Shown: positions 1-21,278, numbered from the stretch's first letter. The stretch is DNA of 32,221 nt from Gammaproteobacteria bacterium (GCA_049668345.1 JBATJF010000172.1:1-32221), one strand, 5' to 3'. Notes: generated by a model not told the origin, from the letters alone. Numbers and translations: made by a program.

Positions 1-2
1 AG

Positions 3-1286
<1,284 letters not shown>

Positions 1287-1399: not shown

Positions 1400-3619
1400 A
1401 TGCACCGCCCGGGTGCAGCACCGCAGCTGTCCGCGACAGCACTGCGACACGAGCGTTTGACAATGCAGCAAAACTCGAAAACACTCCATGGCGTGGAATC
1501 CGACGACGGCAGTTTTGATGCAGCAATCCGTGCCCACGATGCCGCAGTGGCGGCCAGCGACCTCGATGTCTGGATAGGTGCCGAACCGACCTTTACCAAC
1601 CGCCGCTCCGAGTCACCGGAATGGCTGACCGACGCTCTCGGCGCAAGCAAGCAGGACTACGCACGCCACGTCATCGAACAGCTCCGCGACAGCTATCCCG
1701 GCTCGATCATCCTGCGCACCCTGGGGCGCCAGTATCCCGGGGAAGCGCGACCCCGCTGGAGCCTGGGCCTGTACCAGCGCCGTGACGGGCGCGCGCTGGC
1801 CGACGGCCTGCCGGCTGATCCGCTGGGGATGGCGTGTTCCTGCGAAGCGGGACACCTGACGGCGTTCTGGCAGGCCCTGGCCGCAGCGCTCGGCCGGGAC
1901 GGCTGGGATGCAGCGGGTTTTCAGGTCGATGGGGAGATGGGGCTGCGCGTGGTGTTCCGCTGCGACAGGCGACAGCCGCTGGCAGAACCGGCCACGGATT
2001 CGCGCCTTGGGCGGGCGTCACTCCATGCGCAGGCCATACCGCCGGACGGTCTGGTGGATGACCTTGCCGGCGAGGGGCTGTATCTGGTCGCGATTGGCTG
2101 CGCGGCCACGGGTCCGGATGACAGCCTGCAGCCCTGCATCGAGTTGCCGGCGTTTGCGGAGGTCGCGTTGTTCATGGCCTTCATCCAGCGTGTCGCGCAG
2201 GCAGCGGGTGAGGCGGGACTGACTGCGCTGGTGTGGCGCGGATTCCCGCCGCCGGTGGACAGGACTATCGCCTGGACCACGCTGACGCCGGATCCGGCAG
2301 TACTTGAAATCAATGAAGCGCCCGCGTCCTGTGTTGCCGAGTTTCTGGAGCGGAGCCGCCGGCTGTACGCCCTGGTGGAGGCGCAGGGCCTGGCGCCTTA
2401 CCGGCTGCAATACAACGGCACCGTGTCGGACAGCGGTGGCGGCGGTCAATTCACGCTCGGCGGGCCCACACCCGCGCACAGCCCGTTTTTCGTGGCACCC
2501 CGGCTCCTGAGTCGCATGGTGGTCTATTTCAATCGTCATCCGGCGCTTTCCTACTGGTTTGCACCGCTCTATGTCGGCAGCTTCAGCCAGTCGCCACGCC
2601 CGGACGAGAACGTGCTCGAATCGTTCAGCGAACTGCAGGTGGCGTTGCAGCACCTGGACGCCACACCCGAACCGGAGCCCGAATTCATCTGGCGCAGTCT
2701 CAGTCCGTTTCTGGTCGACACCTCGGGCAATGCCCACCGCAGCGAACTCAATATCGAAAAACTCTGGAATCCCTGTCTGCCCGGACGCGGCTGTCTCGGA
2801 CTGGTCGAGTTGCGGGCGTTTCGCATGGCCATCGATGCGGAAAGCGCGGCTGCCATCGCCGCCATGCTGCGTGCGCTGGCGGCAATGTTGAGTCGCCAGG
2901 CGAGCAGCCGCCAGCTGATCGAGTGGGGCAGCCGCCTGCACGACCGTTTTGCACTGCCGTTCTACCTGCGCCAGGATCTGGAGGCGGTATTCAGTGACCT
3001 GGCTGCGGCCGGGCTGGAACTTGGTGCACCCGTCATCGAGCGTCTGCTTGCCGATCACTGGCGGCATATCGGTGATGCCGAGTGCGCCGGTTGCCGGCTC
3101 GATGTCGACCAGGCCATCGAATTCTGGCCGCTGCTGGGCGATGCCGCCACGCAATCGGGCGGTTCGCGCCTGGTGGATGCCAGCACGACACGCCTGCAAA
3201 TCATGCTGCGGCCCGCGTCCGGTCTTGCAGCGGATCTCGACGGCTGGCAGTTGCTGGCGGGCCGCTACCGGGTGCCGTTGCGCCGTGACCGGGACGCCTC
3301 CGGGGCGGTGCTCATCACGGGACTGCGTTACCGTGCCTTTGTACCCTGGGCAGGCCTGCATCCGGGGCTCGGTGCCCAGGGGCCGATCGTGCTTGCGCTC
3401 CTGCCGCCCGGGGCGGAGCGCGGGCTGCGCATCACACTGCACGACTGGCAACCGCAGGGGGAGGCCTACGCCGGTCTGCCTGGATCACTCGATGAGGCGC
3501 GCAGGCGCATACGCGAGCGGTTCGCCGTGGAGGTGATCACGGCAGACAGCGCGCCCGAAGGCATCGCGCCGCCGGCCGAAGCCATGTCGGACTACTGTTT
3601 CGACCTGCGGCGCACCTGA
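1400..3619 (+). CDS. Stand-alone DUF2126-family protein (C-terminal module of the large transglutaminase-like proteins, without a transglutaminase domain)
   Basis: It aligns by eye with residues ~320-1128 of the 8348..11734 product. Matching pairs: [20 protein letters not shown]; [16 protein letters not shown]; [38 protein letters not shown]; [32 protein letters not shown]; [18 protein letters not shown]. The start is ambiguous (ATG 1400 or ATG 1463) and neither has a clear SD. Confidence 0.8.
1401..1417. promoter_or_regulatory. NtrC-type palindrome TGCACC-N5-GGTGCA
   Basis: The sequence reads TGCACCGCCCGGGTGCA, and both 6-bp half-sites match the enterobacterial NtrC consensus. It lies 46 bp upstream of ATG 1463 and overlaps the alternative ATG 1400. 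It is a single site with no sigma-54 promoter seen nearby. Confidence 0.3.
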
Positions 3620-3661: not shown

Positions 3662-4846
3662 TCAGACCCGGTACGGCGCAAGCCGATCGACCAGGTATCC
3701 GGCGATCCGCTGCAGCAGCGAACCACCTGATGCAGGGCGGTCGATGTCCTGGTCCTGCACATATCCGGCATCAAATACGCGGTGTGTCCTGACGACCCCG
3801 TGCACGAATTCGAGTTTCCGCAGCGCCGGATCGGGCAGCGTAAACGGGTACAGGTCCGGGAGCCCCATGCTCCGGTTGAGACTGTTCAGGGCATGCGTCA
3901 GCGGTATCCAGTGACTGATGATGGTCTCGAAATCCTCGATACGATAGGCGTTGAAGCGGGGGTCGGCATGGTGAATGGTGCCGTCCGGCAGCTCGCGTCT
4001 GACCTGCACGCCGTAGTGCCCGGCAGTTTCCAGTGTGTCAATGATATGCAGGTAGTGCGCCCAGGACTCGGCCCAGTCCTCCCATGGGTGTGAGCTGGCG
4101 TAACGGGAGATATAGCGGCTCTGCCAGTCTCCCGGTGCGCCGGCCTGGTAATGGTTGTCGAGGGCCTGCGGATAGTTGATCCGTTCGTCACCGAACAGCT
4201 CGCGGAAGGCAGCCAGCGAAGGCGTGTTCCGGATCAGTTGGTTCCAGTAATAGTGCCCGCTTTCATGCCGGAAGTGCCCCAGCAGCGTCCGGTATTTTTC
4301 GTCCAGATCGACGCGGGACTGTTCGCGCCGGGCCGGATCCGCCTCATCGATGCTGATGACGATATGGCCGTTATCATGCCCGGTGATCACGTGTGACCCG
4401 GGCGGTGCATCGAGATCGGACATGAAGGAAAAGGCCAGTCCCCGGTCGGGGTCTTCCGTCCTGCTGTGCAGGGGCAGCCCGAGTTTCAGCAGGCTGTAGA
4501 TCAGGCGCCGCTTGCTGCGTTCCAGTCGATACCAGCGTTCCGCGAAGCCGGGCCGGGAAAGATTGGGGATGGTCTGGTTGAACTTGCAGGCGATACAGAA
4601 ACGCTGGCCGGAGTCGGCCGGGACCATCCAGTTGCAGACGGCGTGAGCCGCGTAGTTTTCGCACTTGCGGTAGCGGTTACCCACCGCCATGTCGGTGAGT
4701 GCCTTCCAGGTCCCGTCCGTAGCGGGTTCCAGCGCAGACACGCGCAGAATCTGCGGCAGCACCCCGAGTTCGTGGTTGCAGCGGGTGCAAATGCTGTTGT
4801 CGAAATAGACCGGGTTCTTACAGTGTTCGCAGTGGAAGGTTCTCAT
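3662..4846 (-). CDS. Zinc-ribbon + putative zinc metallopeptidase (Peptidase_Mx-like)
   Basis: N-terminal CxxC...CxxC (CEHCKNPVYFDNSICTRC), a further Cys cluster (CENYAAHAVCNW...FCIACKF) and an HExxH motif (FRHESGHYYW). It is the last gene of the minus-strand operon, 30 nt after the upstream stop. Confidence 0.75.
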   Translation of the reverse strand: MRTFHCEHCKNPVYFDNSICTRCNHELGVLPQILRVSALEPATDGTWKALTDMAVGNRYRKCENYAAHAVCNWMVPADSGQRFCIACKFNQTIPNLSRPGFAERWYRLERSKRRLIYSLLKLGLPLHSRTEDPDRGLAFSFMSDLDAPPGSHVITGHDNGHIVISIDEADPARREQSRVDLDEKYRTLLGHFRHESGHYYWNQLIRNTPSLAAFRELFGDERINYPQALDNHYQAGAPGDWQSRYISRYASSHPWEDWAESWAHYLHIIDTLETAGHYGVQVRRELPDGTIHHADPRFNAYRIEDFETIISHWIPLTHALNSLNRSMGLPDLYPFTLPDPALRKLEFVHGVVRTHRVFDAGYVQDQDIDRPASGGSLLQRIAGYLVDRLAPYRV

Positions 4847-4876
4847 TCGTCGAGTGCTGTTCCCGGGAGGAGGCTT

Positions 4877-5797
4877 TCAGCCGCCGGGTGCCGGTTGAGC
4901 CGCCGTTGTATCGGATTCCGGCAGGCGTTCCATGTCCACCGACACCCGTGGCCGGTGTCCCGGGTCGCCGCCGAACAATACGCCCTTGAGTGGCGTGACA
5001 TCGGCATAGTCCCGTCCCCAGGCCGTGGTGATGTGCTGGTCCAGCGGCACCCGGTTGTTGGTGGGGTCGAAGTCATGCCAGCCGACATCGGGCAGGTATA
5101 CCGAGAACCAGGCATGCGATTCGTCGGCCCCGCGCTGCTTGGCCTGGCCCGGTGGCGGCACGGTTTCCAGGTAGCCGCTCACATAGCGCGCCGCCAGCCC
5201 GAGACTGCGCAGGCAGGCGATCGCCAGGTGGGCAAAGTCCTGGCATACACCCCGCCGACTGGAGAGGACCTCGGTCAGGGGGGTGGAGACGGTGGAAAAT
5301 CCCGGGTCGTAGGTGAACTCGTGGTGGACGCGTGCCATCAGGTCGCGCACGGACTCCAGTAACGGCCGGCCGGGCGGGAACGACGGCGCCGCGTAACCGG
5401 CCAGTTCCTGACCGGTAGGTACCAGCGATGAATCGAGCACGAACTGACGGTTCTCGCGTGACGTGTCCGTGGCGGGTTCTGCCAGGCGCCTGCGCGCCTC
5501 GTCCCAGGGGATGTCAGCTTCCAGTACCAGCTGGCCGGTCCCGGGATTCAGCACGATTTCGCTGGTGGCGGTGACCGTGAGGGTCTGGTGCGGTTGCTGG
5601 ATGGAAAAATAGCTGACATGGTTGCCGAAGTAATCCGCGTGTTCCGCAAGATCCATCGGCAGCGGGTCGATCTGCAGGCGATGTCCCAGGCACTGCTGGG
5701 TGGCAAGGTTGCGCGGCCGCAGGTGGGCCAGGTTGTGGCACAGGCTGACGGTTATCCCGTAACGGTACTCTGTCTTGTGCACGACACGGTATTTCAT
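4877..5797 (-). CDS. Transglutaminase-like cysteine peptidase family protein (Bact_transglu_N + transglutaminase core)
   Basis: N-terminal MKYRVVHKTEYRY signature. The Cys-His-Asp core is intact (RGVCQDFAHL...ARYVSGY; SHAWFSVY; DFDPTN). The start overlaps the upstream stop by 4 nt (ATGA). Confidence 0.85.
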   Translation of the reverse strand: MKYRVVHKTEYRYGITVSLCHNLAHLRPRNLATQQCLGHRLQIDPLPMDLAEHADYFGNHVSYFSIQQPHQTLTVTATSEIVLNPGTGQLVLEADIPWDEARRRLAEPATDTSRENRQFVLDSSLVPTGQELAGYAAPSFPPGRPLLESVRDLMARVHHEFTYDPGFSTVSTPLTEVLSSRRGVCQDFAHLAIACLRSLGLAARYVSGYLETVPPPGQAKQRGADESHAWFSVYLPDVGWHDFDPTNNRVPLDQHITTAWGRDYADVTPLKGVLFGGDPGHRPRVSVDMERLPESDTTAAQPAPGG

Positions 5798-8355
5798 GAC
5801 TGTTCGGATTCTTCGTCGACCAGCTGGTAGGGCCGCTCGGCATGGGTGAAATAGGTTGCCGTGAGGGCATTGGAGGTTTCACCCAGGCGCTGGCCGAGCC
5901 CGGCGAGCAGGTTTTCGAGTCGCGGCCTGATACCGCCGTCCGCCTGCGCCAGTTCCTCTGCATTCGCCAGCTCGAGCTGGGTGGTGGCCTCGAGCACGAG
6001 CCGCATTTCCTGCTTGTAGGGACGCCGGTCCTGTCCCGGCAAGACGGCAAGATGCTGCCGCGCCGCGTTCAGCTGGTAGACGAGGGAGCGGCTGTTGCTT
6101 TCATCCAGCAGCAGCAGGTCCAGCGTGGCTTCCAGCTGCGGCCGGTTGCGGAAACGGCGTCGATAGAGGGAGAAGCTCTCGGTAACGGCCAGCACCGACT
6201 CCAGCAACAGGACCTCGATTTCCGGCGCCACGCGGCTGGTCAGCACGGCGCGCAGCAATGCGATCAGCAGCAGGGCGCGCTCGATGCGTCTGCCCAGGTT
6301 GAAGAAGTGCCAGCCCAGGTCACGGCTCATGCTTTCGCTGGCGGCGCCGGCGATGGCCATCAGCGCGGTGATGATGCGGTCCTGCGTGTCCTGCAGAAAC
6401 TGCAGATCGGTATGACCGCCTTGCGCCAGGCCGTCCAGCTCGTCACCGATGTCATTGAATACCCGCCGCGCGTCGCTGCTCACCAGGTTGCGTACGGCGT
6501 AGGCCGCGTTGAGGCAGTCCGACAGGTTGGCGGCCAGGGTTCCGGTGCGCCGCCGGTTGCAGATCAGGTCGACAAGCTCCGCCTGCGGCTCGGCCAGGCG
6601 CTGCTCGGCGCCGACCCCCGTGAAGCCGGGGTAGGTCATGCTCATGTGGGTCAGCCCCCGCAGCAGCATGGTCAGGGTCGTCTGGTAGACCGGGTCCGCC
6701 AGCTGCAGGGTTTCGTTGCGGCGTGTGTGGATGTTGCGGATCAGCCGGATCATGTCCTCGGCACGCTCGGCGTAGCGGGCCAGCCAGAACAGGTTTTCGG
6801 CGGCCAGCCCGGGCAGGGTCTCCTGCGATTGCGGGAAGACGCCCTTGCCCTGGGGCAGCAGCGTCACGATCTGCTCGGGTTCCGAGGCCAGCACCCAGGT
6901 GTCCTTGCTGACGGCGCCGGCCTGGTTGGACACTAACCGGCTGTCCGGTGTCTCGCCGACGCGGGTCAGTCCGCCCGGCATGACCGTGAAGCTGTCCTGG
7001 CCGGCGGCGAGGAAGGTGCGCAGCACGCTATGGCGCGGTTCCAGCCGGCCCGCATTCAGCGTCGGCGCCGAAGACGGTATCAGTCGTTCCTGACCGATGT
7101 ACTGGTGGGGCCGCGCCTTGATGCGCTCGCGCCATTCTGCCAGTCCTGTTGCATCGAGCTGGTCGCCGAACACCGGCCTGCCGCCCCGCTTGACCGGTCG
7201 CAGTACCAGGGTGGCGAGGTTGGCCAGTACGTAGTCACGTTCCCGTGGCTGTCCGCACCACCAGGTGGCGACCGAGGGCAGCCGCAGTTCCTGTCCCAGC
7301 AAATGCCTCGCCAGCCGGGGCAGGAAGGCCATCAGGCCGGGACTCTCCAGAATGCCCGCGCCGATGGTATTGGCGATGGCAACCCGTCCGCGACGCATCA
7401 CTTCCACCAGTCCGGGGACACCGAGCAGGGAGTCGGGGCGCAGTTCCAGCGGGTCACAGTAATGATCGTCGACGCGCCTGAGGATGACATCCACCGGGGC
7501 CAGCCCGCTGACGGACTTGAGCCAGACGCGACCATCGCGCACGGTCAGGTTGGCGCCCTCGATCAGGGTGTAATCGAGGTAGTTGGCAAGGTACAGGTGT
7601 TCGAAATAGGTCTCGTTGTGCGGCCCGGGGGTCATGATCACCACCCGCGGGTCCTCGCGCGCCTTTTCCGGCGCCAGGTTTGCCAGCGACTCGCGCAGGC
7701 GGCGGAAGAAGGGGGCCAGCCGGTGCGGGTGGGAATCGCGGAACAGGCTGGGTATCAGGCGCGACATGACGGTGCGGTTTTCCAGCGCATAGCCCATGCC
7801 CGAGGGGGCCTGGGTGCGGTCCTTGAGGATGCGGAACCGGCCATCATTGCCACGCACCAGGTCCGCGGCAAACAGGCTCAGTCCCGGTGGCCGGGCGGGC
7901 GGGGCGACCACGCAGGAACGCTGGAACCCGGGATCGCCGTACACCAGGTCCGGCGGGATCAGGCCCTTCCTGATCAGGCTGCAGGGACCGTAGAGATCCT
8001 GCAGGATCAGGTTGAGCAGTTCCGCCCGCTGCATCAGCCCGGACTCGATGCCGGCCCATTCGCTGCTGCTGATCAGCAGCGGCACCGGGTCGAGCTGCCA
8101 GGCCCGGTTGTGGCCGTCCTGCGCGCCGTAGACGTTGTAGGTGGCGCCGTCGCTGCGCAGCATGCGGACCGTGTCGCGCTGCCGCTGAGCGAGCACCTCG
8201 GGACCCATGGCATCCAGCGCGCTGATCAGGTACTGCCAGTGTTTGCGCACCGTGCCGTCTCCGGTGCACATCTCGTCGTAGCCTGACGGCGGCCGCGCGT
8301 AGGCCGGACAGGCTGCGCTGCGGTCGGGGGTGTCCATGGTTGGCGTGTCAGTCAC
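5794..8355 (-). CDS. Fused circularly permuted type-2 ATP-grasp (ex-DUF404/DUF407) + alpha-E (ex-DUF403) protein
   Basis: The N-terminal half parallels the 486-aa ATP-grasp at 13213..14673: VDVILRRVDDHYCDPLELRPDSLLGVPGL vs [29 protein letters not shown], and ETYFEHLYLANYL vs SAYFEHSYLAQQM. The C-terminal half carries the alpha-E signature (AAENLFWLARYAERAED vs VAEHIYWMSRYIERAEN). The start is GTG 8355 (8-nt overlap with the upstream gene) or ATG 8337. Confidence 0.85.
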   Translation of the reverse strand: MTDTPTMDTPDRSAACPAYARPPSGYDEMCTGDGTVRKHWQYLISALDAMGPEVLAQRQRDTVRMLRSDGATYNVYGAQDGHNRAWQLDPVPLLISSSEWAGIESGLMQRAELLNLILQDLYGPCSLIRKGLIPPDLVYGDPGFQRSCVVAPPARPPGLSLFAADLVRGNDGRFRILKDRTQAPSGMGYALENRTVMSRLIPSLFRDSHPHRLAPFFRRLRESLANLAPEKAREDPRVVIMTPGPHNETYFEHLYLANYLDYTLIEGANLTVRDGRVWLKSVSGLAPVDVILRRVDDHYCDPLELRPDSLLGVPGLVEVMRRGRVAIANTIGAGILESPGLMAFLPRLARHLLGQELRLPSVATWWCGQPRERDYVLANLATLVLRPVKRGGRPVFGDQLDATGLAEWRERIKARPHQYIGQERLIPSSAPTLNAGRLEPRHSVLRTFLAAGQDSFTVMPGGLTRVGETPDSRLVSNQAGAVSKDTWVLASEPEQIVTLLPQGKGVFPQSQETLPGLAAENLFWLARYAERAEDMIRLIRNIHTRRNETLQLADPVYQTTLTMLLRGLTHMSMTYPGFTGVGAEQRLAEPQAELVDLICNRRRTGTLAANLSDCLNAAYAVRNLVSSDARRVFNDIGDELDGLAQGGHTDLQFLQDTQDRIITALMAIAGAASESMSRDLGWHFFNLGRRIERALLLIALLRAVLTSRVAPEIEVLLLESVLAVTESFSLYRRRFRNRPQLEATLDLLLLDESNSRSLVYQLNAARQHLAVLPGQDRRPYKQEMRLVLEATTQLELANAEELAQADGGIRPRLENLLAGLGQRLGETSNALTATYFTHAERPYQLVDEESEQS

Positions 8356-11300
8356 ATCTGCCGCTGTGTCTCAGGTCCAGGGTGTAAGGATACTCCGGAT
8401 TGATCTCCTCCACAGGGGGTGCCATGGGTCCAGGGACATGGCCTTCGGGGAAAAACTTCGTCAGGGGTGCAAGCTCCGGCGGCGGGCGCAGCGGGCCCGT
8501 GCTGTGGCCATGGCCCCAGAAGCGGCTGATACGGCGCGATTCGGCCTCGTAGGCATTGACCGGGAACACGTCATAGTGGCGTCCACCGGGATGTGCCACG
8601 TGGTAGGTGCAGCCACCGATGGAACGGCCGTTCCAGGTATCGATGATATCGAAGACCAGCGGTGAATGAACGCCGATGGTGGGGTGCAGCGCCGAGGGTG
8701 GCTGCCAGGCGCGGAAGCGCACCCCTGCCACGTACTCGCCGTGGGTGCCGGTGCTTCGCAGCGGGACCCGGCGGCCGTTGCAGGCAACCACGTAGCGGCT
8801 TTCCGTCAGCCCGCTGACCTTGACCTGCAGCCGCTCCACCGAGGAGTCGACGAAGCGTGCCGTGCCCAGGTTGCTCATTTCCTCGCCCAGCACGTGCCAG
8901 GGCTCGAGCGCGGCATGCAGGTCGAGGCGGATGTCCTGCACGCTGACCGATCCGCAATGCGGGAAACGGAATTCCAGGAACGGCGCCAGCCATTCCAGCT
9001 GGAACGGGTAACCGGCGCGCTGCAGCTCGCACGCCACGTCTTTCATGTCGGCCCATACGTAGTGGGGCAGCATGAAGCGGTCATGCAGCGCGGTGCCCCA
9101 GCGCACCAGCCGGTGCCGGTAGGGCCGGTCCCAGAAGCGTGCAACCAGCGTGCGCAGCAGCAACATCTGCACCAGGCTCATCTGCGAATGCGGCGGCATT
9201 TCGAAGGCACGGAACTCCACCAGCCCCAGGCGTCCGGTCGACGAATTGGGCGAGTACAGCTTGTCGATACAGAACTCGGCGCGATGGGTGTTGCCGGTGA
9301 TATCCACCAGCAGGTTGCGCAGCAGCCGGTCCACCAGCCAGGGTTCGGCCACTTCACCGTCGGGCATTTGCTGGAAGGCGATTTCCAGCTCGTACAGGTT
9401 CTCGTCCCTGGCCTCGTCCACCCGCGGTGCCTGGCTGGTCGGGCCGATGAACATGCCGGAGAACAGCGTGGACAGGCCGGGGTGATGCTGCCAGTAGGTC
9501 AGCAGGCTGCGCAGCAGGTCGGGACGCCGCAGGAACGGACTGTCGGCCGGGGTGGCGCCGCCGAGGGTGACATGGTTGCCGCCGCCGGTGCCGGTATGGC
9601 GGCCGTCCAGCATGAACTTCTCCGTTCCCAGCCGGGACAGGCGCGCCTCGGCGTAGAGGATCTCGGTATTCTCCACCAGTTCCTGCCAGTCGTGTGCCGG
9701 GTGGATGTTGACCTCGATCACGCCCGGATCGGGGGTCACGGCCAGCTTGCGCATACGCCAGTCCCGCGGGGGTTCGTAGCCTTCGATGCGTACCGGCATC
9801 TGCAGCTCGGCCGCCGTCAGTTCCACCGCGGCGAGCAGGTCCAGGTAATGCTCCAGGTGGGTAAGCGGCGGCAGGAACAGGCGCAGCATGCCATCGCGGG
9901 CCTCGACACACAGGGCGGTATGAATCACCTCGATTCGCCGCCGCGCCTGCACGCCGTTGTCCGCCGGTTCCTGCTGCATGATTTCCGGGTGGGATTCCGG
10001 CGCCGCCTCGATGCGGCTGAAGCGGCGGGTCACCTCGCCGTAGTAGTCACCCAGCGCCGGGCGCGGTTCGAACAGGTCGCGTTCCGGTTCGATGTCGCGT
10101 TCCTCCTCGGCTATCCAGGGCAGGGCGTCGAGTGGCAGGCGCAGTCCCATGGGGGAATCGCCGGGCGCGAGGCACATATGCCCGCGGCGAAAGTGCCAGC
10201 TGCAGCTTTGCCAGCCGCTGCGGGAATCATCCCAGCGCAGCGGCAGGGCGAAGCCGGCGGGTTTGCCGAGGTCGCCGGCGAGCAGTTCCACCAGCCGGCG
10301 CCGTTCGTCCGGCTTCTTCAGGTCGGTGCCGAGCAGGTCCACGTTGGCCGGCTGGTCGCCTTCCTTCCACAGGTAGTAAAGGGTGTCTTCGTAGGCGGGG
10401 AGCAGGTAATGCCCGGGTACGCCGAGCCTGCGGGTCAGTGCTGCAGCGAACTGCTCCGCCTCGTCCGGTCCGCAGCCGTAGTCGACGCCGTCCCGGGCCA
10501 GCAGTTTGGGGTCGCGCCACACCGGGTTGCCGTCGACTCGCCAGAAGCAGTTCAGTGACCAGCGCGGCACGGGTTCGCCCGGGTACCACTTGCCCTGGCC
10601 GTAGTGCAGCAGGCCGCCGGGTGCGAAGCGCCCTTGCAGTCGCTGCAGCAGATCGCCGGCCAGCTCGCGCTTGTGTTTCCCGAGCGCGGCGTCATTCCAC
10701 TGCGCCGATTCCATGTCATCGATGGAAACGAACGTCGGTTCGCCGCCGAGCGTGAGCCGCACGTCACCGGCCGCCAGGTCGGCATCCACCTTGCGTCCCA
10801 GGGCCTGGATGGTCTCCCACTGTGACGCGGTGTACGGCTTGGTGACCCGCGGGTCCTCGTGGATGCGCTGCACCTCGTTATGGAAGCGGAATTCCACCTT
10901 GCATTTGCCGGTCGTGCCGGTAATCGGCGCGGCGCTGACGGGGTGGGGCGTGCAGGCGAGCGGGATATGGCCCTCGCCCGCGAACAGGCCCGAGGTCGGA
11001 TCGAGTCCCAGCCAGCCGGCGCCCGGTATAAACACCTCGGCCCAGGCATGCAGGTCGGTGAAGTCATGGTCGGTGCCGGCGGGACCCTCCAGCGGTTTTT
11101 CATCCGGTGTCAGCTGCAGCAGGTAGCCGGAAACAAAGCGCGCCGCCAGGCCGAGATGGCGCAGGATCTGCACCATCAACCAGGCGCTGTCGCGACAGGA
11201 ACCCAGTGCCTTGTCGAGGGTTGTCTCGCAGCTCTGGATGCCCGGTTCCATGCGGATGGTGTAGTCGATGTCACGCTGCAACCGCTGGTTGATAGCCACC

Positions 11301-11734
11301 AGGAAATTATTGATCTCCTGCTTCGAACGATCGACACCGGACAGCCACTTCAGCAACCGCGGGCCGTCCTCGGTGATCTCCAGATAAGGCGCCAGTTCCT
11401 TGCGCAAACCGGGCGTGTATTCGAAGGGGTAGTGCTCCGCATATTTTTCGACGAAAAAATCGAACGGGTTGATGACCACGATATCGGCCACCAGGTCCAC
11501 CTCGAAGGACAAGGTCCGCACCGGCTCCGGGAACACCAGGCGGGCGAGGTAGTTGCCGAAGGGATCCTGCTGCCAGTTGATGAAATGTTTCTCGGGCAGC
11601 ACCTTGAGCGAATAGGACTCGATCGGGCTGCGGGTATGCGGGGCCGGGCGCAGCCGGACGATATGCGGGGAGACCTCGACCGGCCGGTCAAAGCGGTACT
11701 CCGTCAAGTGATTGATAGCAACTCGGATAGCCAT
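8348..11734 (-). CDS. Large transglutaminase-like protein (Bact_transglu_N + transglutaminase core + DUF2126)
   Basis: N-terminal MAIRVAINHLTEYRF. Cys-His-Asp core is intact (LGSCRDSAWL...ARFVSGY; LHAWAEVF; GLDPTSG). A long C-terminal DUF2126 region contains GTGGGNHVTLGG. 1128 aa. Confidence 0.85.
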   Translation of the reverse strand: MAIRVAINHLTEYRFDRPVEVSPHIVRLRPAPHTRSPIESYSLKVLPEKHFINWQQDPFGNYLARLVFPEPVRTLSFEVDLVADIVVINPFDFFVEKYAEHYPFEYTPGLRKELAPYLEITEDGPRLLKWLSGVDRSKQEINNFLVAINQRLQRDIDYTIRMEPGIQSCETTLDKALGSCRDSAWLMVQILRHLGLAARFVSGYLLQLTPDEKPLEGPAGTDHDFTDLHAWAEVFIPGAGWLGLDPTSGLFAGEGHIPLACTPHPVSAAPITGTTGKCKVEFRFHNEVQRIHEDPRVTKPYTASQWETIQALGRKVDADLAAGDVRLTLGGEPTFVSIDDMESAQWNDAALGKHKRELAGDLLQRLQGRFAPGGLLHYGQGKWYPGEPVPRWSLNCFWRVDGNPVWRDPKLLARDGVDYGCGPDEAEQFAAALTRRLGVPGHYLLPAYEDTLYYLWKEGDQPANVDLLGTDLKKPDERRRLVELLAGDLGKPAGFALPLRWDDSRSGWQSCSWHFRRGHMCLAPGDSPMGLRLPLDALPWIAEEERDIEPERDLFEPRPALGDYYGEVTRRFSRIEAAPESHPEIMQQEPADNGVQARRRIEVIHTALCVEARDGMLRLFLPPLTHLEHYLDLLAAVELTAAELQMPVRIEGYEPPRDWRMRKLAVTPDPGVIEVNIHPAHDWQELVENTEILYAEARLSRLGTEKFMLDGRHTGTGGGNHVTLGGATPADSPFLRRPDLLRSLLTYWQHHPGLSTLFSGMFIGPTSQAPRVDEARDENLYELEIAFQQMPDGEVAEPWLVDRLLRNLLVDITGNTHRAEFCIDKLYSPNSSTGRLGLVEFRAFEMPPHSQMSLVQMLLLRTLVARFWDRPYRHRLVRWGTALHDRFMLPHYVWADMKDVACELQRAGYPFQLEWLAPFLEFRFPHCGSVSVQDIRLDLHAALEPWHVLGEEMSNLGTARFVDSSVERLQVKVSGLTESRYVVACNGRRVPLRSTGTHGEYVAGVRFRAWQPPSALHPTIGVHSPLVFDIIDTWNGRSIGGCTYHVAHPGGRHYDVFPVNAYEAESRRISRFWGHGHSTGPLRPPPELAPLTKFFPEGHVPGPMAPPVEEINPEYPYTLDLRHSGRCD

Positions 11735-11798
11735 TTCAAGGAAACCTGGTCAGTAAAAAACAGTGTTCACCATAGCACGGATCGTGCAGACGGCAGTT

Positions 11799-12647
11799 TC
11801 AGCTGTCCGTCCGGATGCTGAGATCAAAGTGCATTTCGGAATTCCCGGCAGCGCCGTAACAGGACCCCTCTATCGGCAGGGTCCAGGCCGGACTGCAGGC
11901 CGCGGTCAGCGCCACGTGCGCATCCGCCACGGCGGTACCGTGGCCGGGGTCGTAGCCGCGCCAGCCGCCGCCGGGGAGGTAGACCTCCGGCCAGGCGTGC
12001 AGGTAACGGCGTTTCCCGCGCGTTTCCGGACGGGCCTGGTAGCCGCTGACGAAACGCGCCGCGAGGCCCTGCTCCCGGCAGACTGCGATAAACAGCAGCG
12101 TCAGGTCGCGGCATGCACCCCGGCGCTGCGCCAGGGTAAGTTCGGGGCTTTGCGGTGCACCCTGGTCCCGAATCGACTTTTCGCATGTGGTGTGCAGGAA
12201 GCGGCTCAGGGTGTCGAGAAAAGCCAGCGTGTTGTTGCCCGCCTGTCTGGCCAGATCGGCGGCCAGCTCGATGACCGCGGGTGCGGCTGTGCCGCAGGCA
12301 CGACAGGCTGTCAGCGCCGGGACCTCGTGCTGGCTGTAGCAAACGGGCAGAGCGGTTGCCGGGGTGTCCACGATGTAGTCGAAGGGATTGTCCCGCAGCG
12401 TGACGACGCGGGCGGTGCTGTCGATACGCAGTTCGACCGTCGTGCCGGTAAACCACAGGCGTCTGACCAGGTTGCCTTCGGCATCGAGGACGTTCGATTG
12501 CAGCACAGGTTCCGGGGTGATTGTGCAGTCATAGTCGAGCACCTGCTGGCTGCCGTCGGTACGCGGCAGCAGGCGCACGATATGCGGACCGAGCCGGACC
12601 GGACTCTGGTAACGGTAAGTGGTGATATGCCGGATTTCAAATTGCAC
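11799..12647 (-). CDS. Transglutaminase-like cysteine peptidase family protein; first gene of the minus-strand operon
   Basis: GTG start; (M)QFEIRHITTYRY N-terminus. Triad is intact (RGACRDLTLL...ARFVSGY; LHAWPEVY; GYDPGHG). There are 64 nt to the next gene. Confidence 0.8.
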   Translation of the reverse strand: MQFEIRHITTYRYQSPVRLGPHIVRLLPRTDGSQQVLDYDCTITPEPVLQSNVLDAEGNLVRRLWFTGTTVELRIDSTARVVTLRDNPFDYIVDTPATALPVCYSQHEVPALTACRACGTAAPAVIELAADLARQAGNNTLAFLDTLSRFLHTTCEKSIRDQGAPQSPELTLAQRRGACRDLTLLFIAVCREQGLAARFVSGYQARPETRGKRRYLHAWPEVYLPGGGWRGYDPGHGTAVADAHVALTAACSPAWTLPIEGSCYGAAGNSEMHFDLSIRTDS

Positions 12648-12685: not shown

Positions 12686-12701
12686 AGCAAGAAGTACGCC
12701 A
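12686..12701 (-). promoter_or_regulatory. Possible sigma-54 (-24/-12) promoter for the minus-strand operon (partial match)
   Basis: The minus strand reads TGGCGTACTTCTTGCT. GG and GC are at the canonical spacing and TTGCT is intact, with two mismatches in the -24 box (GT for AC). It lies ~40 nt upstream of GTG 12647. Confidence 0.3.
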
Positions 12702-13083
12702 TTTCTGCCGTTCCTGTCCTTCCCGTGCCGCCGGACGGGATATCAGGAGATTGCGCGCCGGCTGTGGCGGTGTTTCATGCCCTGCACCCTGTTGCCGCGG
12801 CTGACCGGGAACCTGCCGGGCGGGTTCAGGTGCAAGTCTGGTGCGGAAACGGGGATTTTTCATGATCCGTGCGTCATGCTGGTGCATGTCAGGCGCTGCT
12901 GGCATCCCTGCTGCAGGCGGCGGCCACAGTACGCGGCTTGATCCGTGGCCAGTGCCGGCAGCGGTGCGCGTCCGCCAAGGTGCTGTATTTCAATGATGGC
13001 TGCTTCCGCCTGGCATGATTTCGTGCGCCATGGCGAAAAGAATGACGCAACAGCGGCTGCACCGGCCGGCTGGCTCGCCCGGG

Positions 13084-13099
13084 TGGCACGTTGTTTGCT
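13084..13099 (+). promoter_or_regulatory. Sigma-54 (RpoN) -24/-12 promoter
   Basis: TGGCACGTTGTTTGCT is a full match to TGGCACG-N4-TTGCW. The -12 GC sits 115 nt upstream of ATG 13213 of the ATP-grasp gene. Confidence 0.6.
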
Positions 13100-13212: not shown

Positions 13213-14673
13213 ATGAGTGATATGACAATTCGGTGGCAAGACTATTCAAGCGGCGACTCCTACGACGAATTGATTACGCCGGCCGGGCATGCGCGCAAGG
13301 CAGCCCGGCAAGCGATACGGTATATCAGTTCGCTGAGCGATGCGGAATGGACCGAGCGCCGGGATGCCGCGGAACTGGCCATGCGCGTCATGGGTATTAC
13401 CTTCACCGTCTATACCAACGAAAGCGGCATCGACCGGGTCTGGCCGTTCGATATCATTCCACGCATCATTCCCGCCCGCGAGTGGCGCACCACCGAGGCC
13501 GGCCTGATCCAGCGTGCGACCGCACTGAACAAATTCATAGCCGATATCTACGGCGAACAGCGCATCATCAGGGACAAGGTCTTTCCGGGTGAGCTGCTGG
13601 CGGAGTCGGTCAATTTCCGCAAGCAGTGCGTCGGCATCAGGCCGCCTCTCGATGTCTGGGCACATATCTGCGGCAGTGACCTGGTACGCGACAGCGACGG
13701 GAAATTCTACGTCCTGGAAGACAACCTGCGTGTCCCGTCGGGCGTCTCCTATATGCTGGAGAACCGCCTGGTCATGAAACGTGTCTTTCCCGAATTGTTC
13801 GAGGAAGTCAGCATCCTGCCGGTAGACGGCTATCCTGCCCGCCTGTTCGATACCCTGGCCTCGCTGTCGCCGCGCCCGGCCGACTACCCGACGGTCGTTG
13901 TCCTGTCACCGGGCATCTATAACTCCGCCTATTTCGAGCATTCCTACCTGGCACAGCAAATGGGTGTGGAACTGGTGGTCGGCAGGGACCTGGTGGTGAT
14001 GGATGACGACTGTGTCTACCTGCGCACCGTCGGCGGGCTGGAGCGGGTCGATGTCATTTACCGCCGGGTCGACGACATGTTCCTCGATCCCGAAGTCTTC
14101 CGTCCGGACTCCATGCTCGGCGTGCCCGGCCTGATGCGGGCCTGGCGTGCGGGCAATGTGGGCATTGCCAATGCCCCCGGCGCCGGCGTTGCCGATGACA
14201 AGGTTGTCTATGCCTTTGTGCCGGACATGATCCGCTACTACCTGGACGAAGAGCCGATCCTGCCCAATGTCGAGACCTACCTGTGCATGGACGACAGGCA
14301 GCGCGACTACGTGCTCGCCAATCTCGACAAGCTGGTGGTCAAGCCCGCCAATGAATCGGGCGGCTACGGCATGCTGGTCGGACCGTTTTCCAGCAAGGCG
14401 GAGCGGCAGAAGTTTGCGGAACTGATCAAGGCGAAACCGCGTAATTACATCGCCCAGCCGACACTGGCGCTGTCGACAACACCGACGCTGTGTGACGGTC
14501 ACATCGAGTCGCGTCATATCGACCTGCGCCCGTTTATCCTGTCCGGGCAGACCAGCCATGTCACGCGCGGCGGCCTGACGCGGGTTGCGCTCAAGAAAGG
14601 CTCGCTGGTGGTGAATTCATCACAGGGTGGTGGCAGCAAGGATACCTGGGTCGTTGACATGGAGAGAACCTGA
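13213..14673 (+). CDS. Circularly permuted type-2 ATP-grasp protein (ex-DUF404/DUF407)
   Basis: Family-typical blocks: FDIIPRIIPAREW..GLIQRATALNKFIADIYG, SAYFEHSYLAQQMG, VVKPANESGGYGMLVGP. It is paralogous to the N-terminal half of the 5794..8355 product. Confidence 0.85.
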   Translation: MSDMTIRWQDYSSGDSYDELITPAGHARKAARQAIRYISSLSDAEWTERRDAAELAMRVMGITFTVYTNESGIDRVWPFDIIPRIIPAREWRTTEAGLIQRATALNKFIADIYGEQRIIRDKVFPGELLAESVNFRKQCVGIRPPLDVWAHICGSDLVRDSDGKFYVLEDNLRVPSGVSYMLENRLVMKRVFPELFEEVSILPVDGYPARLFDTLASLSPRPADYPTVVVLSPGIYNSAYFEHSYLAQQMGVELVVGRDLVVMDDDCVYLRTVGGLERVDVIYRRVDDMFLDPEVFRPDSMLGVPGLMRAWRAGNVGIANAPGAGVADDKVVYAFVPDMIRYYLDEEPILPNVETYLCMDDRQRDYVLANLDKLVVKPANESGGYGMLVGPFSSKAERQKFAELIKAKPRNYIAQPTLALSTTPTLCDGHIESRHIDLRPFILSGQTSHVTRGGLTRVALKKGSLVVNSSQGGGSKDTWVVDMERT

Positions 14674-14675
14674 TC

Positions 14676-15656
14676 ATGTTGCTTTCAAGTGTTGCCGAGC
14701 ATATCTACTGGATGTCCCGTTATATCGAACGGGCCGAGAACACCGCGCGCATCATCCTCGTGCACAACAACCTGATGCTCGATATGCCGCGCAGGATTGC
14801 CATCGGCTGGGACCCGCTGGTCTACATCATGGGCTCCATGGAACCGTTCTGTGAGCGCTACGAGGAAGCCAGTGAGCGCAACGTGGTGCGTTTCCTGGTC
14901 TCCGACAGGAACAATTCCAGCTGCATCACCTGCTCACTGGGCCAGGCGCGCGAGAACCTGCGGACCATCCGGGCCATCGTGCCGCGAGCGGCCTGGGAGA
15001 CCCTGAACGACCTGTATGAATACACCCGGGAAAATGCTGCCAGCGGCATCAGCCGCCGCGGTCGTTACGCCTACATGAAACGGGTGGTCGATTCCTGCCA
15101 GCTGCTGGCCGGGAAACTGTCCGGGACCATGAGCCATGACATGGCCTACGAGTTCCTGCGCATCGGCCGCTTCATGGAGCGTGCGGACATGACCAGTCGT
15201 GTCATCGACGTGCGCGCCACCAACCTGCTGCCGCAACAGACCGATGAACTCAAGCCCTTCGACGATATCCAGTGGAAAAGCGTGCTGGACCTGCTGATGG
15301 CCTACCAGATGTACCGGCGCCGGGTGCACGTCGGCGTGCGCGGCAGGGAGGCCCTGCGCTTCCTGCTGCAGGAGGAGGAGTTCCCGCGTTCGATACATTT
15401 CTGCCTGGCCGAGGTCGGCCACTGTCTGCGCCGTCTGCCCGGCAACGAGTCGGTGCTCCGGGTGCTCGGCCGCGCGCAGCGCATGGCGCAGGATTTCAGT
15501 GTCGGTGACAACGTCACCGCCGGTTTGAATGATTTCATCAACGAACTACAATTGGTACATACCGAGTTGCATGAACAGCTCGTCGCAAGCTATTTCGATG
15601 TGCCGCAGGAAGCCGCATCACTGCATGCGCCCACCCGTCTCGCTGCAACCGGTTAA
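14676..15656 (+). CDS. Alpha-E domain protein (ex-DUF403)
   Basis: MLLSSVAEHIYWMSRYIERAENTARI signature. It starts 2 nt after the ATP-grasp stop and is paralogous to the C-terminal half of the fused 853-aa protein. Confidence 0.85.
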   Translation: MLLSSVAEHIYWMSRYIERAENTARIILVHNNLMLDMPRRIAIGWDPLVYIMGSMEPFCERYEEASERNVVRFLVSDRNNSSCITCSLGQARENLRTIRAIVPRAAWETLNDLYEYTRENAASGISRRGRYAYMKRVVDSCQLLAGKLSGTMSHDMAYEFLRIGRFMERADMTSRVIDVRATNLLPQQTDELKPFDDIQWKSVLDLLMAYQMYRRRVHVGVRGREALRFLLQEEEFPRSIHFCLAEVGHCLRRLPGNESVLRVLGRAQRMAQDFSVGDNVTAGLNDFINELQLVHTELHEQLVASYFDVPQEAASLHAPTRLAATG

Positions 15657-15729: not shown

Positions 15730-18700
15730 ATGGCCATGATCACGCATGACGGCAGCGGTCTGTATCAACCGGGATTCGAGCATGACGGTTGCGGCTTCGG
15801 CCTGATTGCGCAAATGGACGGCAAGCCGGGGCATGCGCTGGTGCACCGGGCGATCCGCGCGCTGTCACGCCTGACCCACCGCGGGGCGGTTGCGGCGGAT
15901 GGCAAGAGCGGTGACGGCTGCGGGCTGCTGATGAAGCTGCCGCATGATTTTCTGCATGCCGTGGCACTCGCCGACGGTATCACCCTGTCATCCCGCTATG
16001 CCGTGGGGATGCTGTTTCTCAACCGGGACCCGGAGCGTGCCGGGGCGGCGCGCTGGAGACTGGAGTTCGAACTCGAGGCGCAGGACCTCGCAGTGGCCGG
16101 CTGGCGTAGCGTGCCCGTCGAGCCGGATGCCTGCGGAGCACGGGCTCTGGAGAGCCTGCCTCTGATCGAGCAGGTGTTCGTCAATGCACCGCCCGGGCTG
16201 CCCGGGGACGAGCTGGAACGACGCCTGTACATCGCCCGGCGCCGTGCCAGGAAGGCCATCAAGGACGAGGACAGTACGTTTTACGTCGCCAGTCTCTCCA
16301 GCCAGGTGATCTGCTACAAGGGTCTGGTCATGCCGCATAACCTGCCGGTGTTCTACCCCGACCTGTGTGATGAACGCCTGGCGTCCTCGCTGTGCGTGTT
16401 TCACCAGCGGTTTTCCACCAACACCTGGCCGGAATGGCGGCTGGCACAACCGTTCCGCTATCTCGCGCATAACGGTGAAATCAATACCATCCAGGGCAAT
16501 CGCAACTGGGCCCGCGCGCGCAGCCACAAGTTCGAGTCGCCGCTGATCCCCGACATGGACGCGATTCGCCCCTGGGTGTCGATGTCGGGCTCCGATTCCT
16601 GCAGCCTGGACAACATGCTGGAGGCGCTGCTGGCCGGCGGCATGGATATCTTCCTGGCCATGCGCCTGCTGATCCCGCGCGCCTGGCAGAACATCGAGAC
16701 CATGGATCCCGACCTGCGGGCATTTTACGAATACCATTCCATGCACATGGAACCGTGGGACGGACCGGCGGGGATCGTGCTGACGGATGGCCGCTATGCC
16801 GCCTGCCTCATGGATCGCAATGGCCTGCGCCCGGCGCGCTACGTCATCACCCGTGACCGCTGTATCACCCTGGCATCGGAGATCGGGGTGACCGAACACG
16901 AACCGCAGGACGTCGTTGCCAGGGGGCGGCTGTCGCCCGGCGACATGATGGCGGTGGACACCCGGACCGGCCGCTTGCTGACGCCGGGCATGATCGAGGA
17001 TGACCTCAAAGGCCGCTGGCCCTGCCGCAAGTGGCTGCAGCAGCACGCCGTACGCCTCGAGTCACGCCGCGATGAGGAGGTGCGCTACTGCCGGCAGTCG
17101 GCGCCCGGACAACTCAGGATCCGGCAGAAGCAGTTCCAGGTGACGCTGGAGGAACTCGACCAGGTGCTGCGTGTGCTGGCCGAGGGCGGGCAGGAAGCGA
17201 TCGGCTCCATGGGAGACGATACTCCCATGCCGGTCCTGTCACGACAGGTCCGCTCGCTGTTCGACTATTTCCGTCAGCAGTTTGCACAGGTCACCAATCC
17301 GCCCATCGATCCCCTGCGCGAGCAGATCGTCATGTCACTGGAGACCTGTTTCGGTGTCGAACGCAACCTGTTTGTCGAGGACCCGCAGCATGCCGCGCGC
17401 CTGATGGTCAACAGCCCGGTCCTGTCGGGAAGCAAGTTCAACCAGCTGCTGGAACAGTCGGATCCGCGCTACCGGCATGCCCGCATCGACCTGAACTACG
17501 ACCGCACGCTGGACCTGCGCAGCGCCATCCATGCACTGGCCGAACGGGCCGTCGAACAGGTGCGAAGCGGCAAGTGCATCCTGGTCCTTTCGGACCGGGA
17601 CATCGCGCAGGACCGCCTGCCCGTGCATGCGCTGCTGGCCACCGGCGCGATACACCACCGGCTGATCGAGGCCGGACTGCGCTGCGATGCCAACCTGGTG
17701 GTCGATACCGGCACCGCGCGCAATCCGCACGAATTCGCCGTGCTGATCGGCTTCGGCGCAACGGCCATCCATCCCTGGCTGGCCTACCAGTGCATCGCCG
17801 ACCTGTTTCGCGGCGGGCAGGCGGACGCTGCCGGCGATACCGTGACCGGGGCACTCCATTCCTACCGGCGCGGTATCAACAAGGGCCTGTACAAGATCCT
17901 TTCCAAGATGGGGATCTCCACCATCACGAGCTACCGGGGCGCGCAACTCTTCGAGTCCATCGGCCTGCATCGCGATGTCGTCGATCTGTGTTTCAGCGGT
18001 ACGCCCTGCCGCCTGCAGGGCGCCGGGTTCGAGGAACTCGAGGCGGACCAGCGGCGCCTGGCGGACGCGGCCTGGGACGGACGCCGGGACATCGAGCCGG
18101 GCGGGCGGCTGAAATTCATCGCCGGCGGCGAGTTCCATGCCTTCAACCCGGATGTCGTCACGACCCTGCACCAGGCCGTGGCCAGCGGCGAGTACCGGGA
18201 CTACCGGCGCTATGCGGCGCTGATCAACCAGCGGCCGCCGCTCGTGCTGCGGGACCTGCTGGGAGTGCGTGACGATCTCGAGCCGGTGCCGATCGAGGCG
18301 GTCGAGCCGGTCGAGGAGATTGTCAGGCGTTTCGAGACCGGCGCGATGTCACTGGGCGCCCTGTCGCCGGAGGCGCACGAGACCCTGGCGATCGCCATGA
18401 ATCGACTCGGTGGCCGTTCCAACTCGGGTGAGGGTGGCGAGGACCCGCAACGCTTCGGCACCGAGCGTGTTTCCAGGATCAAGCAGGTGGCATCCGGCCG
18501 CTTCGGCGTGACGCCGCATTACCTGGTCAATGCGGACGTGCTGCAGATCAAGATCGCGCAGGGTGCCAAGCCCGGTGAAGGCGGTCAACTTGCCGGCCAG
18601 AAGGTGAACGAACTGATTGCCCGCCTGCGGCATGCCGAGGTCGGTACACCGCTGATATCCCCGCCGCCGCATCACGACATCTATTCCATCGAGGACCTGG

Positions 18701-20205: not shown

Positions 20206-20247
20206 CCGCATTTCTTGCCTTCTCCCTGTACATCGCGCGATGCTAAT

Positions 20248-20483
20248 GGCCACGGAATCCACGGAATCCACGGAAGAACACGGATATAAATGCAGTTGCA
20301 GGGTGCGTTTTACACACCGCGAACGGTGCACGAAGTGCACCCTACGAAAAAGAGTGGCCACGGAATCCACGGAAGAACACGGAAATATAAATGCAGTTGC
20401 AGGGTGCGTTTTACGCACCGTGAACGGTGCACGAAGTGCACCCTACGAAAAAGAACGGCCACGGAATCCACGGAAGAACACGG
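20248..20483. repeat. Tandem repeat array, 2.3 copies of a 101-108 bp unit with twin hairpins
   Basis: Copy 1 is 20248-20355, copy 2 is 20356-20456, and a partial copy 3 is 20457-20483. The unit starts with 9-bp sub-repeats CCACGGAA(T/G), x3 in copy 1 and x2 in copy 2. It contains hairpins GGTGCG-TTTTA-CGCACC and GGTGCAC-GAA-GTGCACC (20325-20341 and 20426-20442). The array lies between the convergent gltB and lipoprotein genes. Confidence 0.9.
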
Positions 20484-20514
20484 CAAGAATGCCCGTTCGG
20501 GCAGCAGTCCCGGA

Positions 20515-20937
20515 TCAGTTTTCAACGGCACCATTATCGATCCAGACCCGGATGGTCTCGATCTCTTCGGCACTGAGGGGTGCCTTGCCATGCGGCATGG
20601 AGATTGTCAGGTTGTCTTTGGAGGAAATCAGGTTATACAGCGAACTGGTCATGGCCGAACCCGGATGGATGACCGGTCCGAACCGGGTGTCTTTCATCAG
20701 CGATGCGTAGGAGTCCACCTGAAGGCCGGTTGTTTCGGCAGCCGGCTTTCCGGCTGCATGACATTCAGCACAATGCTTTTGCAGGATGGGGGCCACATCA
20801 TCCGCATAGCTCACCGGCTGTGACTGCGACGGCTCTGCCTTTTGTAACTGCAGCTGCCCTGCCTTGTCGTCATCGCAGGCCGCCAGGCTCGCGGCGATTG
20901 CCAGTAACGCGGCGAGCGGCATGGCTCGATTGTTCAT
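20515..20937 (-). CDS. c-type cytochrome domain lipoprotein (PSCyt1-like, single CxxCH)
   Basis: Signal peptide plus lipobox (MNNRAMPLAALLAIAASLAAC) and heme motif CAECH. Domain-like pattern VAPILQKHCAECH...MPHGKAPLSAEEIETIRVWIDNGA. GGAGGGG lies 7 nt upstream of ATG 20937; the ORF track starts 12 codons earlier. Confidence 0.65.
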   Translation of the reverse strand: MNNRAMPLAALLAIAASLAACDDDKAGQLQLQKAEPSQSQPVSYADDVAPILQKHCAECHAAGKPAAETTGLQVDSYASLMKDTRFGPVIHPGSAMTSSLYNLISSKDNLTISMPHGKAPLSAEEIETIRVWIDNGAVEN

Positions 20938-20987
20938 TGGGCTACCCCTCCGGGACTGTTGGCCAGCCGGCATCTTAGCATTCTTCA

Positions 20988-21261: not shown

Positions 21262-21278
21262 CTGTGACCCCGGGACCA

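Follow-up and report, generated by a model that had tools for sequence, protein, structure and literature searches.

The window analysed here is the entire contig JBATJF010000172.1 (32,221 bp, 65% G+C, with many spurious long open reading frames (ORFs) in other frames) of a metagenome-assembled genome (MAG) from an uncultured gammaproteobacterium, GCA_049668345.1. Between positions 3662 and 12647 its minus strand carries five consecutive genes, at exactly the coordinates given in a preliminary description made from the sequence, which together encode putative ATP-dependent ligases, transglutaminase-like (TGase-like) proteins and a metallopeptidase. In operon order these are a leading TGase-like protein, TG1 (11799–12647, 282 aa; Pfam Bact_transglu_N and Transglut_core), a large protein in which a TGase domain is fused to DUF2126 (8348–11734, 1128 aa; Bact_transglu_N, Transglut_core and DUF2126, 1360 bits), a ligase in which a circularly permuted ATP-grasp (cpATP-grasp) domain is fused to alpha-E (5794–8355, 853 aa from a GTG start; CP_ATPgrasp_2 E 7.6e-150, Alpha-E E 3.7e-62), a small TGase-like protein, TG3 (4877–5797, 306 aa; Bact_transglu_N and Transglut_core), and a Zn-ribbon/zincin-type metallopeptidase (3662–4846, 394 aa; Zn_ribbon_DZR_6 and Peptidase_Mx, E 3.5e-104). 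Profile hidden Markov models (HMMs) from Pfam recovered all of the domains originally noted, and because each match far exceeds its gathering score the five ORFs are real genes rather than spurious ones.

The genes are separated by a 64-nt gap, an 8-nt overlap of the ligase GTG start with the upstream stop, a 4-nt ATGA overlap and a 30-nt gap, all as first described. The alternative ligase start, an ATG at 8338 that is used both in the deposited call (847 aa) and in a 98% identical relative, leaves a gap of 9 nt rather than the 11 nt previously given. No internal promoter or terminator is predicted in the operon interior, and the hairpin at its 3' end, between convergent genes, does not exceed shuffled sequence in stability (z -0.14), so we claim no intrinsic terminator there. 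Together the five genes make up a single, closely packed unit, and its predicted catalytic motifs are all intact.

Residues 25–489 of the fused ligase match PDB entry 3N6X (E 5.9e-88); no solved structure is closer to the ATP-grasp part, and the entry was deposited as a putative glutathionylspermidine synthase. The ER motifs of the ligase's alpha-E part lie at residues 530 and 692. In the large protein, whose top 120 homologues are all 69–97% identical over the full length, the N-terminal part is matched by Foldseek to the TGase-like structure 3ISR (E 2.4e-6). DUF2126 is annotated by Pfam as a putative amidoligase and, with Rv2566 as the example, was placed by Iyer et al. in the carboxylate-amine ligase superfamily alongside glutamine synthetase (GS), GCS2 and PafA (PMC2588565); the prediction of a GS-like ligase draws mainly on this paper and the Pfam label. 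Since DUF2126 is itself a predicted ligase, the operon would contain two putative ligases, and the window with its flanking paralogues four, in place of the one ATP-dependent ligase accompanied by four hydrolase/transferase domains that had been proposed. The Cys-His-Asp triad is retained by all three TGase domains, as had been read from the sequence, in the form of G-x-C-x-D, H-A-W and D-P-T/G motifs in an alignment of 135 sequences (C185/H228/D244 in TG3, approximately C180/H229/D245 in the large protein and approximately C179/H217/D233 in TG1).

Taking the fused ligase as anchor, we annotated the neighbours in 80 loci, each representing a species, with domain HMMs built from the window's own proteins. 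These loci span Gammaproteobacteria, Bacteroidota, Planctomycetota, Actinomycetota, Acidobacteriota, Myxococcota and other groups; the genome scan returned 38–51% identity among the matches listed, and the close clade of the window was reached separately through protein matches. The TGase-DUF2126 gene directly precedes the fused ligase in 39 of 66 evaluable loci and occurs elsewhere in the locus in 8 more, while the position after the ligase is filled by a small TGase in 70 of 73 evaluable species loci, with a mean identity of 51% between TG3 and the TGases found there. As this order is kept across the 80 loci, the three-gene core is a standard, phylum-spanning neighbourhood. The fused ligase has at least 8000 homologues and each of the three protein families searched gave at least 8000 matches, so that the label "orphan", applied to these genes at the outset, goes too far; the core is among the commoner conserved bacterial neighbourhoods. 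Conservation of the neighbourhood across phyla is a property of this core, but all five genes occur together only within the clade, namely in the window and in L001 and L166 (ligases 98% and 81% identical to that of the window); L165 (84%) lacks the peptidase and L002 (79%) lacks both TG1 and the peptidase. When unannotated ORFs of at least 90 aa were clustered, the only further recurrent neighbour was an Anbu-like proteasome homologue (16/85 loci), a family for which the window itself gives no Pfam match.

In each of the three close relatives the TGase-DUF2126 gene is broken into two or three ORFs or is uncalled (L001, 6604–9990; L165, 6621–10008; L166, 6198–9959), and the L166 ligase is truncated; the 1128-aa gene is intact in the window and in a 97% identical homologue, P0241. 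The split ORFs are most likely indel errors in the MAG assemblies, not pseudogenes.

TG1 is the first operon gene in all four clade members that have it. Its orthologues were found only in L001, L165 and L166, at 93, 67 and 58% identity compared with 98, 84 and 81% for the ligase, making it a fast-evolving, clade-specific accessory. No TG1-like gene accompanies the loci outside the clade, where the nearest relatives from an exhaustive search are standalone proteins of ~280 aa (38–61% identity), two of them on contigs of 1–1.7 kb each. Two origins for TG1 were considered and rejected. As a displaced third member of an unfused cpATP-grasp/alpha-E/TGase triad it would be expected to resemble the TGases that follow alpha-E genes, to which it is only ~24% identical (four examples only), and as one half of a split paralogue of the large fusion, the other half being a TGase-less DUF2126 protein, it should have fusions as its nearest relatives, and these are standalone.

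The rapid divergence and clade confinement of TG1, with the absence of the peptidase from L165, L002 and 42 of 45 diverse loci with full flanks (the ligase-anchored set to which all counts "within 10 kb" refer), would also be expected if the five genes were not one functional unit, and TG1 and the peptidase were two unrelated genes that happen to flank the core on the same strand. We consider this highly improbable. The gaps involved are of 64 and 30 nt and hold no predicted promoter or terminator, TG1 keeps its position throughout the clade, the conserved sigma-54 promoter described below lies upstream of TG1 rather than of the core, and the peptidase adjoins related modules at independent loci in several phyla.

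The last of these points comes from a separate sample of 80 peptidase-anchored metagenome loci, 27 of which have at least 4 kb on both sides. In 12 of these 27 the peptidase adjoins a cpATP-grasp/alpha-E/TGase/DUF2126 module, in several phyla and in varied placements (ahead of the unfused pair, behind the small TGase or in divergent orientation to the large gene), where chance adjacency would be ~1% by our own rough estimate. Counted from the fused ligase, Peptidase_Mx is found within 10 kb in 3/45 loci (5/80 overall). The peptidase is a recurrent optional partner of these modules and, as it recurs beside them in several phyla, is no novelty of this window, contrary to the initial view that it was special to this version of the operon. 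Among 22 homologues the invariant residues are two four-Cys clusters (C6/C9/C20/C23 and C62/C71/C84/C87), H194-E195-xx-H198, and an HPWEDWAE block at 253–260 with E256 and E260; the choice of a third zinc ligand among the residues downstream of HExxH is one that we infer. The AlphaFold2 (AF2) model of the peptidase is confident, with a predicted local distance difference test score (pLDDT) of 87.9, and its fold matches in the PDB are weak (4L7A, E 0.0098; anthrax lethal factor, E 0.14). At locus L143 (3278–6474, minus strand) TGase and DUF2126 are separate adjacent ORFs beside the peptidase, through either a natural split or a frameshift.

The preliminary description had the operon itself right and left unnoticed the paralogues on its flanks, the linkage to gltB and the sigma-54 promoters. 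A 566-nt region divides the operon from a divergent, unfused cpATP-grasp gene (13213–14673, plus strand, 486 aa; Pfam E 6.2e-168), whose product shares 40% identity with the fused ligase across 470 aa. It is followed by an unfused alpha-E gene (14676–15656, plus strand, 326 aa; Pfam E 7.2e-80), and both ER motifs, ARYxERAE and GRxxERA, are present in the fused and the unfused alpha-E copy. An unfused pair of this kind lies within 10 kb in 23/45 loci. Only 73 nt downstream of alpha-E begins gltB, encoding the glutamate synthase large subunit (15730–20205, plus strand; Pfam GATase_2, Glu_syn_central, Glu_synthase and GXGXG), which occupies the same place in L001, L165 and L166. A gltD-like gene (22870–24309) is on the opposite strand to gltB and not adjacent to it.

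On the other side, convergent with the operon, lies a DUF2126-only paralogue without a TGase domain (1400–3619, plus strand, 739 aa; Pfam E 6.1e-121), which shares 32% identity with the large protein across 513 aa. It keeps most of the invariant charged residues and lacks equivalents of H713, N720, H721 and E845, and may act on another substrate or lack activity. Upstream of it the C-terminal part of a Thioredox_DsbH/YyaL-type protein (1–1286, plus strand) is cut by the window start; the pair formed by this gene and the DUF2126-only gene is kept in L001 and L166. In these same relatives a third cpATP-grasp and alpha-E pair lies in the region beyond the window's left end (L001, 19996–22403; L166, 18825–22175), adjoined in L166 by an Anbu-like gene of the Proteasome family, and from these we take the full supercluster to be ~30 kb and to reach past the window. 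Across the clade it contains up to three cpATP-grasp/alpha-E sets, two putative DUF2126 ligases, three TGases, the zincin and an Anbu-like protease. None of the eight cluster proteins in the window has a membrane-type hydrophobic (transmembrane-like) segment or a match among the PADLOC anti-phage defence models, and scans of the window with Rfam and NCBIfam models gave no element and no match, respectively.

The region between the divergent units contains two putative sigma-54 (-24/-12) promoters. The operon-side element, TGGCGTACTTCTTGCT (12686–12701, minus strand), lies ~39 nt ahead of the GTG start at 12647 and has two consensus mismatches with GG and GC kept; in the four-genome footprint its GG-N10-GC is invariant and the spacer varies (TGGCGTAGTTCTTGC in L165, TGGCGCATTTCTTGC in L166). 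The second, TGGCACGTTGTTTGCT (13084–13099, plus strand), precedes the unfused cpATP-grasp gene by 113 nt and fits the consensus without a mismatch, as does just one other site in the 32-kb window. Both are conserved islands in a four-genome alignment of otherwise diverged intergenic DNA. Between them, at 12828–12886, are two NtrC-like half-site pairs, GGTGCAAGTCTGGTGCG and TGCGTCATGCTGGTGCA, whose TGGTGC cores are also kept in all four genomes amid diverged sequence; the match to consensus is loose, with two mismatches at 12870–12886 in a scan for TGCACC-N5-GGTGCA, and as evidence for NtrC-like enhancer sites it is weak. In other genomes, module heads show an 11-fold enrichment of sigma-54-type motifs in their upstream DNA (8 in 43.9 kb versus 50 in 3035 kb), and at a looser threshold such motifs precede 12 of 28 heads that are unfused cpATP-grasp genes and 7 of 30 that are TGase-DUF2126 genes, compared with 0/26 fused-ligase and 0/7 TGase heads, these being internal genes taken as heads. 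Other gammaproteobacteria have similar motifs 60–140 nt ahead of unfused cpATP-grasp genes. The other perfect match in the window, TGGCACAGATGTTGCT (26359–26374, minus strand), falls within the first 100 nt of a phosphoenolpyruvate carboxykinase (PEPCK) ORF (24537–26456). In this ORF the PEPCK_ATP domain does not start until residue 131; pckA probably has its true start farther downstream and may be served by a sigma-54 promoter.

The conserved sigma-54 sites agree with the published induction of homologous clusters. In Burkholderia such a cluster is among the gene sets most strongly dependent on NtrC and sigma-54 under nitrogen limitation (PMC5491218), and the Anbu operon's genes are the most induced in P. 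putida limited for nitrogen (PMC3235984, PMC5666114); in Bradyrhizobium, a CP_ATPgrasp gene has a putative RpoN site ahead of it (PMC13207237), and in marine metagenomes these domains co-vary with domains of urea metabolism (PMC3597751). The earlier statement that no phenotype has been established therefore holds only in part, since homologues have a known regulatory one; for substrate and product the statement stands, none having been found in the searchable literature. Judged from its promoter motifs, the locus is probably under sigma-54/nitrogen control.

We propose, with a probability of roughly 0.45, that the locus encodes a cytoplasmic pathway, induced by nitrogen starvation, which makes and then cleaves amide bonds of gamma-glutamyl or peptide type. 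The cpATP-grasp enzyme, working with the alpha-E domain, would turn a carboxylate into an acyl-phosphate and couple this to an amine, the DUF2126 domain would serve as a second ligase using the same chemistry, and the resulting amide linkages would be hydrolysed or transferred by the zincin and by the three TGase-like enzymes with their Cys-His-Asp triads. In the version we prefer, a small-molecule or short-peptide cycle would capture or release nitrogen that is then passed to GS and glutamate synthase (GOGAT). NtrC regulons consist mostly of scavenging pathways in which ATP-dependent activation is paired with an amidase, and there are precedents in glutathionylspermidine synthetase/amidase (GspSA), PuuA/PuuD, gamma-glutamylmethylamide synthetase (GmaS) and urea carboxylase/allophanate hydrolase. 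We lean tentatively towards a small-molecule or short-peptide substrate over a protein because of this bias of NtrC regulons, because 3N6X was deposited as glutathionylspermidine-synthase-like, because GS and GmaS are the best ligase-type fold matches for DUF2126, and because no tag gene has been reported.

Several observations weigh against this proposal. A profile of 18 DUF2126 domains found no solved relative among PDB sequences, and the full-length AF2 model of the 1128-aa protein is poor (mean pLDDT 54.8), probably owing to a shallow alignment of 31 sequences that are all at least 69% identical. Searched with this poor model, Foldseek returned GS or GmaS as about half of the top 50 matches at weak E values (0.08–0.8), which is consistent with the ligase assignment but not conclusive. 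The promoters are defined here by motif and conservation, in footprinted genomes that are fairly close relatives, and partners such as Anbu (at the 16 loci noted above) and the zincin are at least equally compatible with substrates that are proteins or peptides. The only activity reported for any member is ATP hydrolysis by the Y. bercovieri cpATP-grasp protein (PMC6376114), and in the sole small-molecule assay reported Rv2567 and Rv2411c were inactive as GABA-trehalose synthetases (10.64898/2026.04.15.718621). Finally, gltB is found within 10 kb in just 1/45 diverse loci, so that its linkage is confined to the clade and may be fortuitous. We regard it as unlikely, if attractive, that the clade's supercluster encodes a hitherto unrecognised ATP-driven nitrogen-salvage route coupled to glutamate synthase by a common sigma-54/NtrC enhancer, whether as a gamma-glutamyl or peptidyl conjugation cycle taking up trace amines or ammonia for GOGAT or as a Gram-negative counterpart of pupylation that labels proteins so that their amino acids can be recycled in nitrogen starvation.

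The main rival to a small-molecule cycle, and the more exciting outcome, is protein tagging and turnover resembling pupylation, in which the DUF2126 ligase, the cpATP-grasp enzyme or both would attach an amino acid or short peptide to target proteins, in the manner of PafA and RimK, the TGases and zincin would remove or process the tag and Anbu would degrade the targets, with the amino acids recycled in nitrogen starvation. PafA and Dop belong to the same carboxylate-amine ligase superfamily as Rv2566-type proteins (PMC2588565), induction by nitrogen limitation suits amino-acid recycling (PMC3235984, PMC6376114), all four non-ligase enzymes have peptidase-type folds, and a conserved protein target would be in keeping with how very strongly the large protein is conserved. 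The Anbu-like genes are the only other recurrent neighbour, one lying just past the window end in L166, but most core loci have none within 10 kb, and Anbu has shown neither peptidase activity nor stable complexes with its operon partners (PMC6376114, PMC5666114). The Anbu structure papers describe the functional hypotheses as unconfirmed (PMC6376114). No Pup-like small ORF and no conserved small tag gene was reported in these neighbourhoods (Iyer et al., PMC2588565), and no modified protein has ever been reported. On balance we think tagging doubtful.

The presence of several paralogous ligases and several peptidases in one supercluster could also reflect synthesis and remobilisation of a nitrogen-rich reserve or non-ribosomal peptide, similar to cyanophycin or poly-gamma-glutamate, with the ligases as polymerases and the TGases and zincin as depolymerases. 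ATP-grasp enzymes such as cyanophycin synthetase and RimK do build such polymers, but we know of none in Pseudomonas or Burkholderia. Peptide synthesis was indeed proposed by Iyer et al., as cited in PMC5666114 and PMC3597751. Induction by nitrogen limitation has the wrong sign for building a reserve, though it fits breakdown, and there is no evidence in the window for an export or granule component; a reserve polymer is improbable, and the making and breaking of amide bonds in a small-molecule cycle remains our preferred reading.

From 20000 to 23000 the G+C content falls to 0.55–0.59, compared with ~0.65 elsewhere, and the stretch includes ORFs without a Pfam match (e.g. 20171–20710) and a DeoC/LacD-family aldolase gene (21279–22367). 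At the right contig end (27204–31788) one gene resembling that for a NiFe-hydrogenase large subunit and another resembling that for a NuoF/HoxF diaphorase point to a bidirectional hydrogenase cluster of Hox type.

The gene sets discussed here are among the most widespread and most conserved bacterial systems without a biochemical function, kept even in the reduced genome of M. leprae, whose TGase+PF09899 protein had been the subject of no experimental studies as of 2024 (PMC11597610). A conserved sigma-54 promoter on a DUF2126-type operon, and not just on the Anbu-type triad, extends the nitrogen link to the whole system. As the Zn-ribbon metallopeptidase is statistically recurrent, it belongs in any reconstitution. 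While the window decides nothing on chemistry, it brings all partner families together in a compact locus that could guide co-expression, where earlier attempts used just four Anbu-operon proteins.

Several known systems offer points of comparison. For the peptidase this is the Peptidase_Mx/Zn_ribbon_DZR_6 family (PF15887 and PF10005), which the window protein matches over its full length, including HExxH and both four-Cys clusters; none of the family's members has been characterised, and the nearest structure, 4L7A, is itself an uncharacterised putative metallopeptidase. GspSA resembles the window in logic only, as an ATP-grasp-type amide synthetase whose reaction is reversed by a papain-fold Cys-His amidase; in the window, by contrast, the ATP-grasp is circularly permuted and needs alpha-E, and the thiol enzyme is TGase-like rather than CHAP. 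DUF2126 was assigned to the same superfamily as PuuA/PuuD, GmaS and PafA/Dop (PMC2588565), all of which share a context of nitrogen metabolism; it differs in having no sequence-level similarity to any solved structure of GS, GCS2 or PafA, in its length of ~850 aa and in its fusion to a TGase domain.

The Anbu operon of P. putida, P. aeruginosa and Y. bercovieri has the cpATP-grasp, alpha-E and transglutaminase-like families in common with the window. Its expression under nitrogen limitation and its control by NtrC are documented, whereas in the window they are predicted from promoters, and the window has no Anbu gene and follows its unfused pair with gltB rather than with a TGase. The orientation of this pair also differs between loci, being divergent in the window and upstream on the same strand in L003, L015, L019, L021 and others.

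The closest likeness is to triads of the Rv2566-Rv2569c and B. cenocepacia I35_5083 types, in which the three central genes have the same architectures and order as in the window. Iyer et al. are said to have predicted, in 2009, a peptide-modification system of cpATP-grasp, alpha-E and transglutaminase, and the preliminary description was correct in tracing such sets to comparative genomics of the Iyer/Aravind type (2008–2009). Its statement that mycobacterial Rv2566-Rv2569c has the same core is supported indirectly, by the architecture of the Rv2566-type large protein, a TGase with a carboxylate-amine ligase (PMC2588565), and by four Actinomycetota loci (L021, L045, L056, L071) with the same core order as the window. 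Compared with the Rv2566-type triad, the unit in the window is extended by a TGase at its head and a Zn-ribbon metallopeptidase at its tail. The locus is not a new kind of system; what it contributes is the conserved dual sigma-54 promoter architecture, which is the chief new result, the statistical association with the peptidase and the presence of all partner families side by side, and we consider it very likely that the locus is a member of a known predicted system, a clade-specific, enlarged instance of the one that combines cpATP-grasp/alpha-E and TGase-like enzymes with DUF2126.

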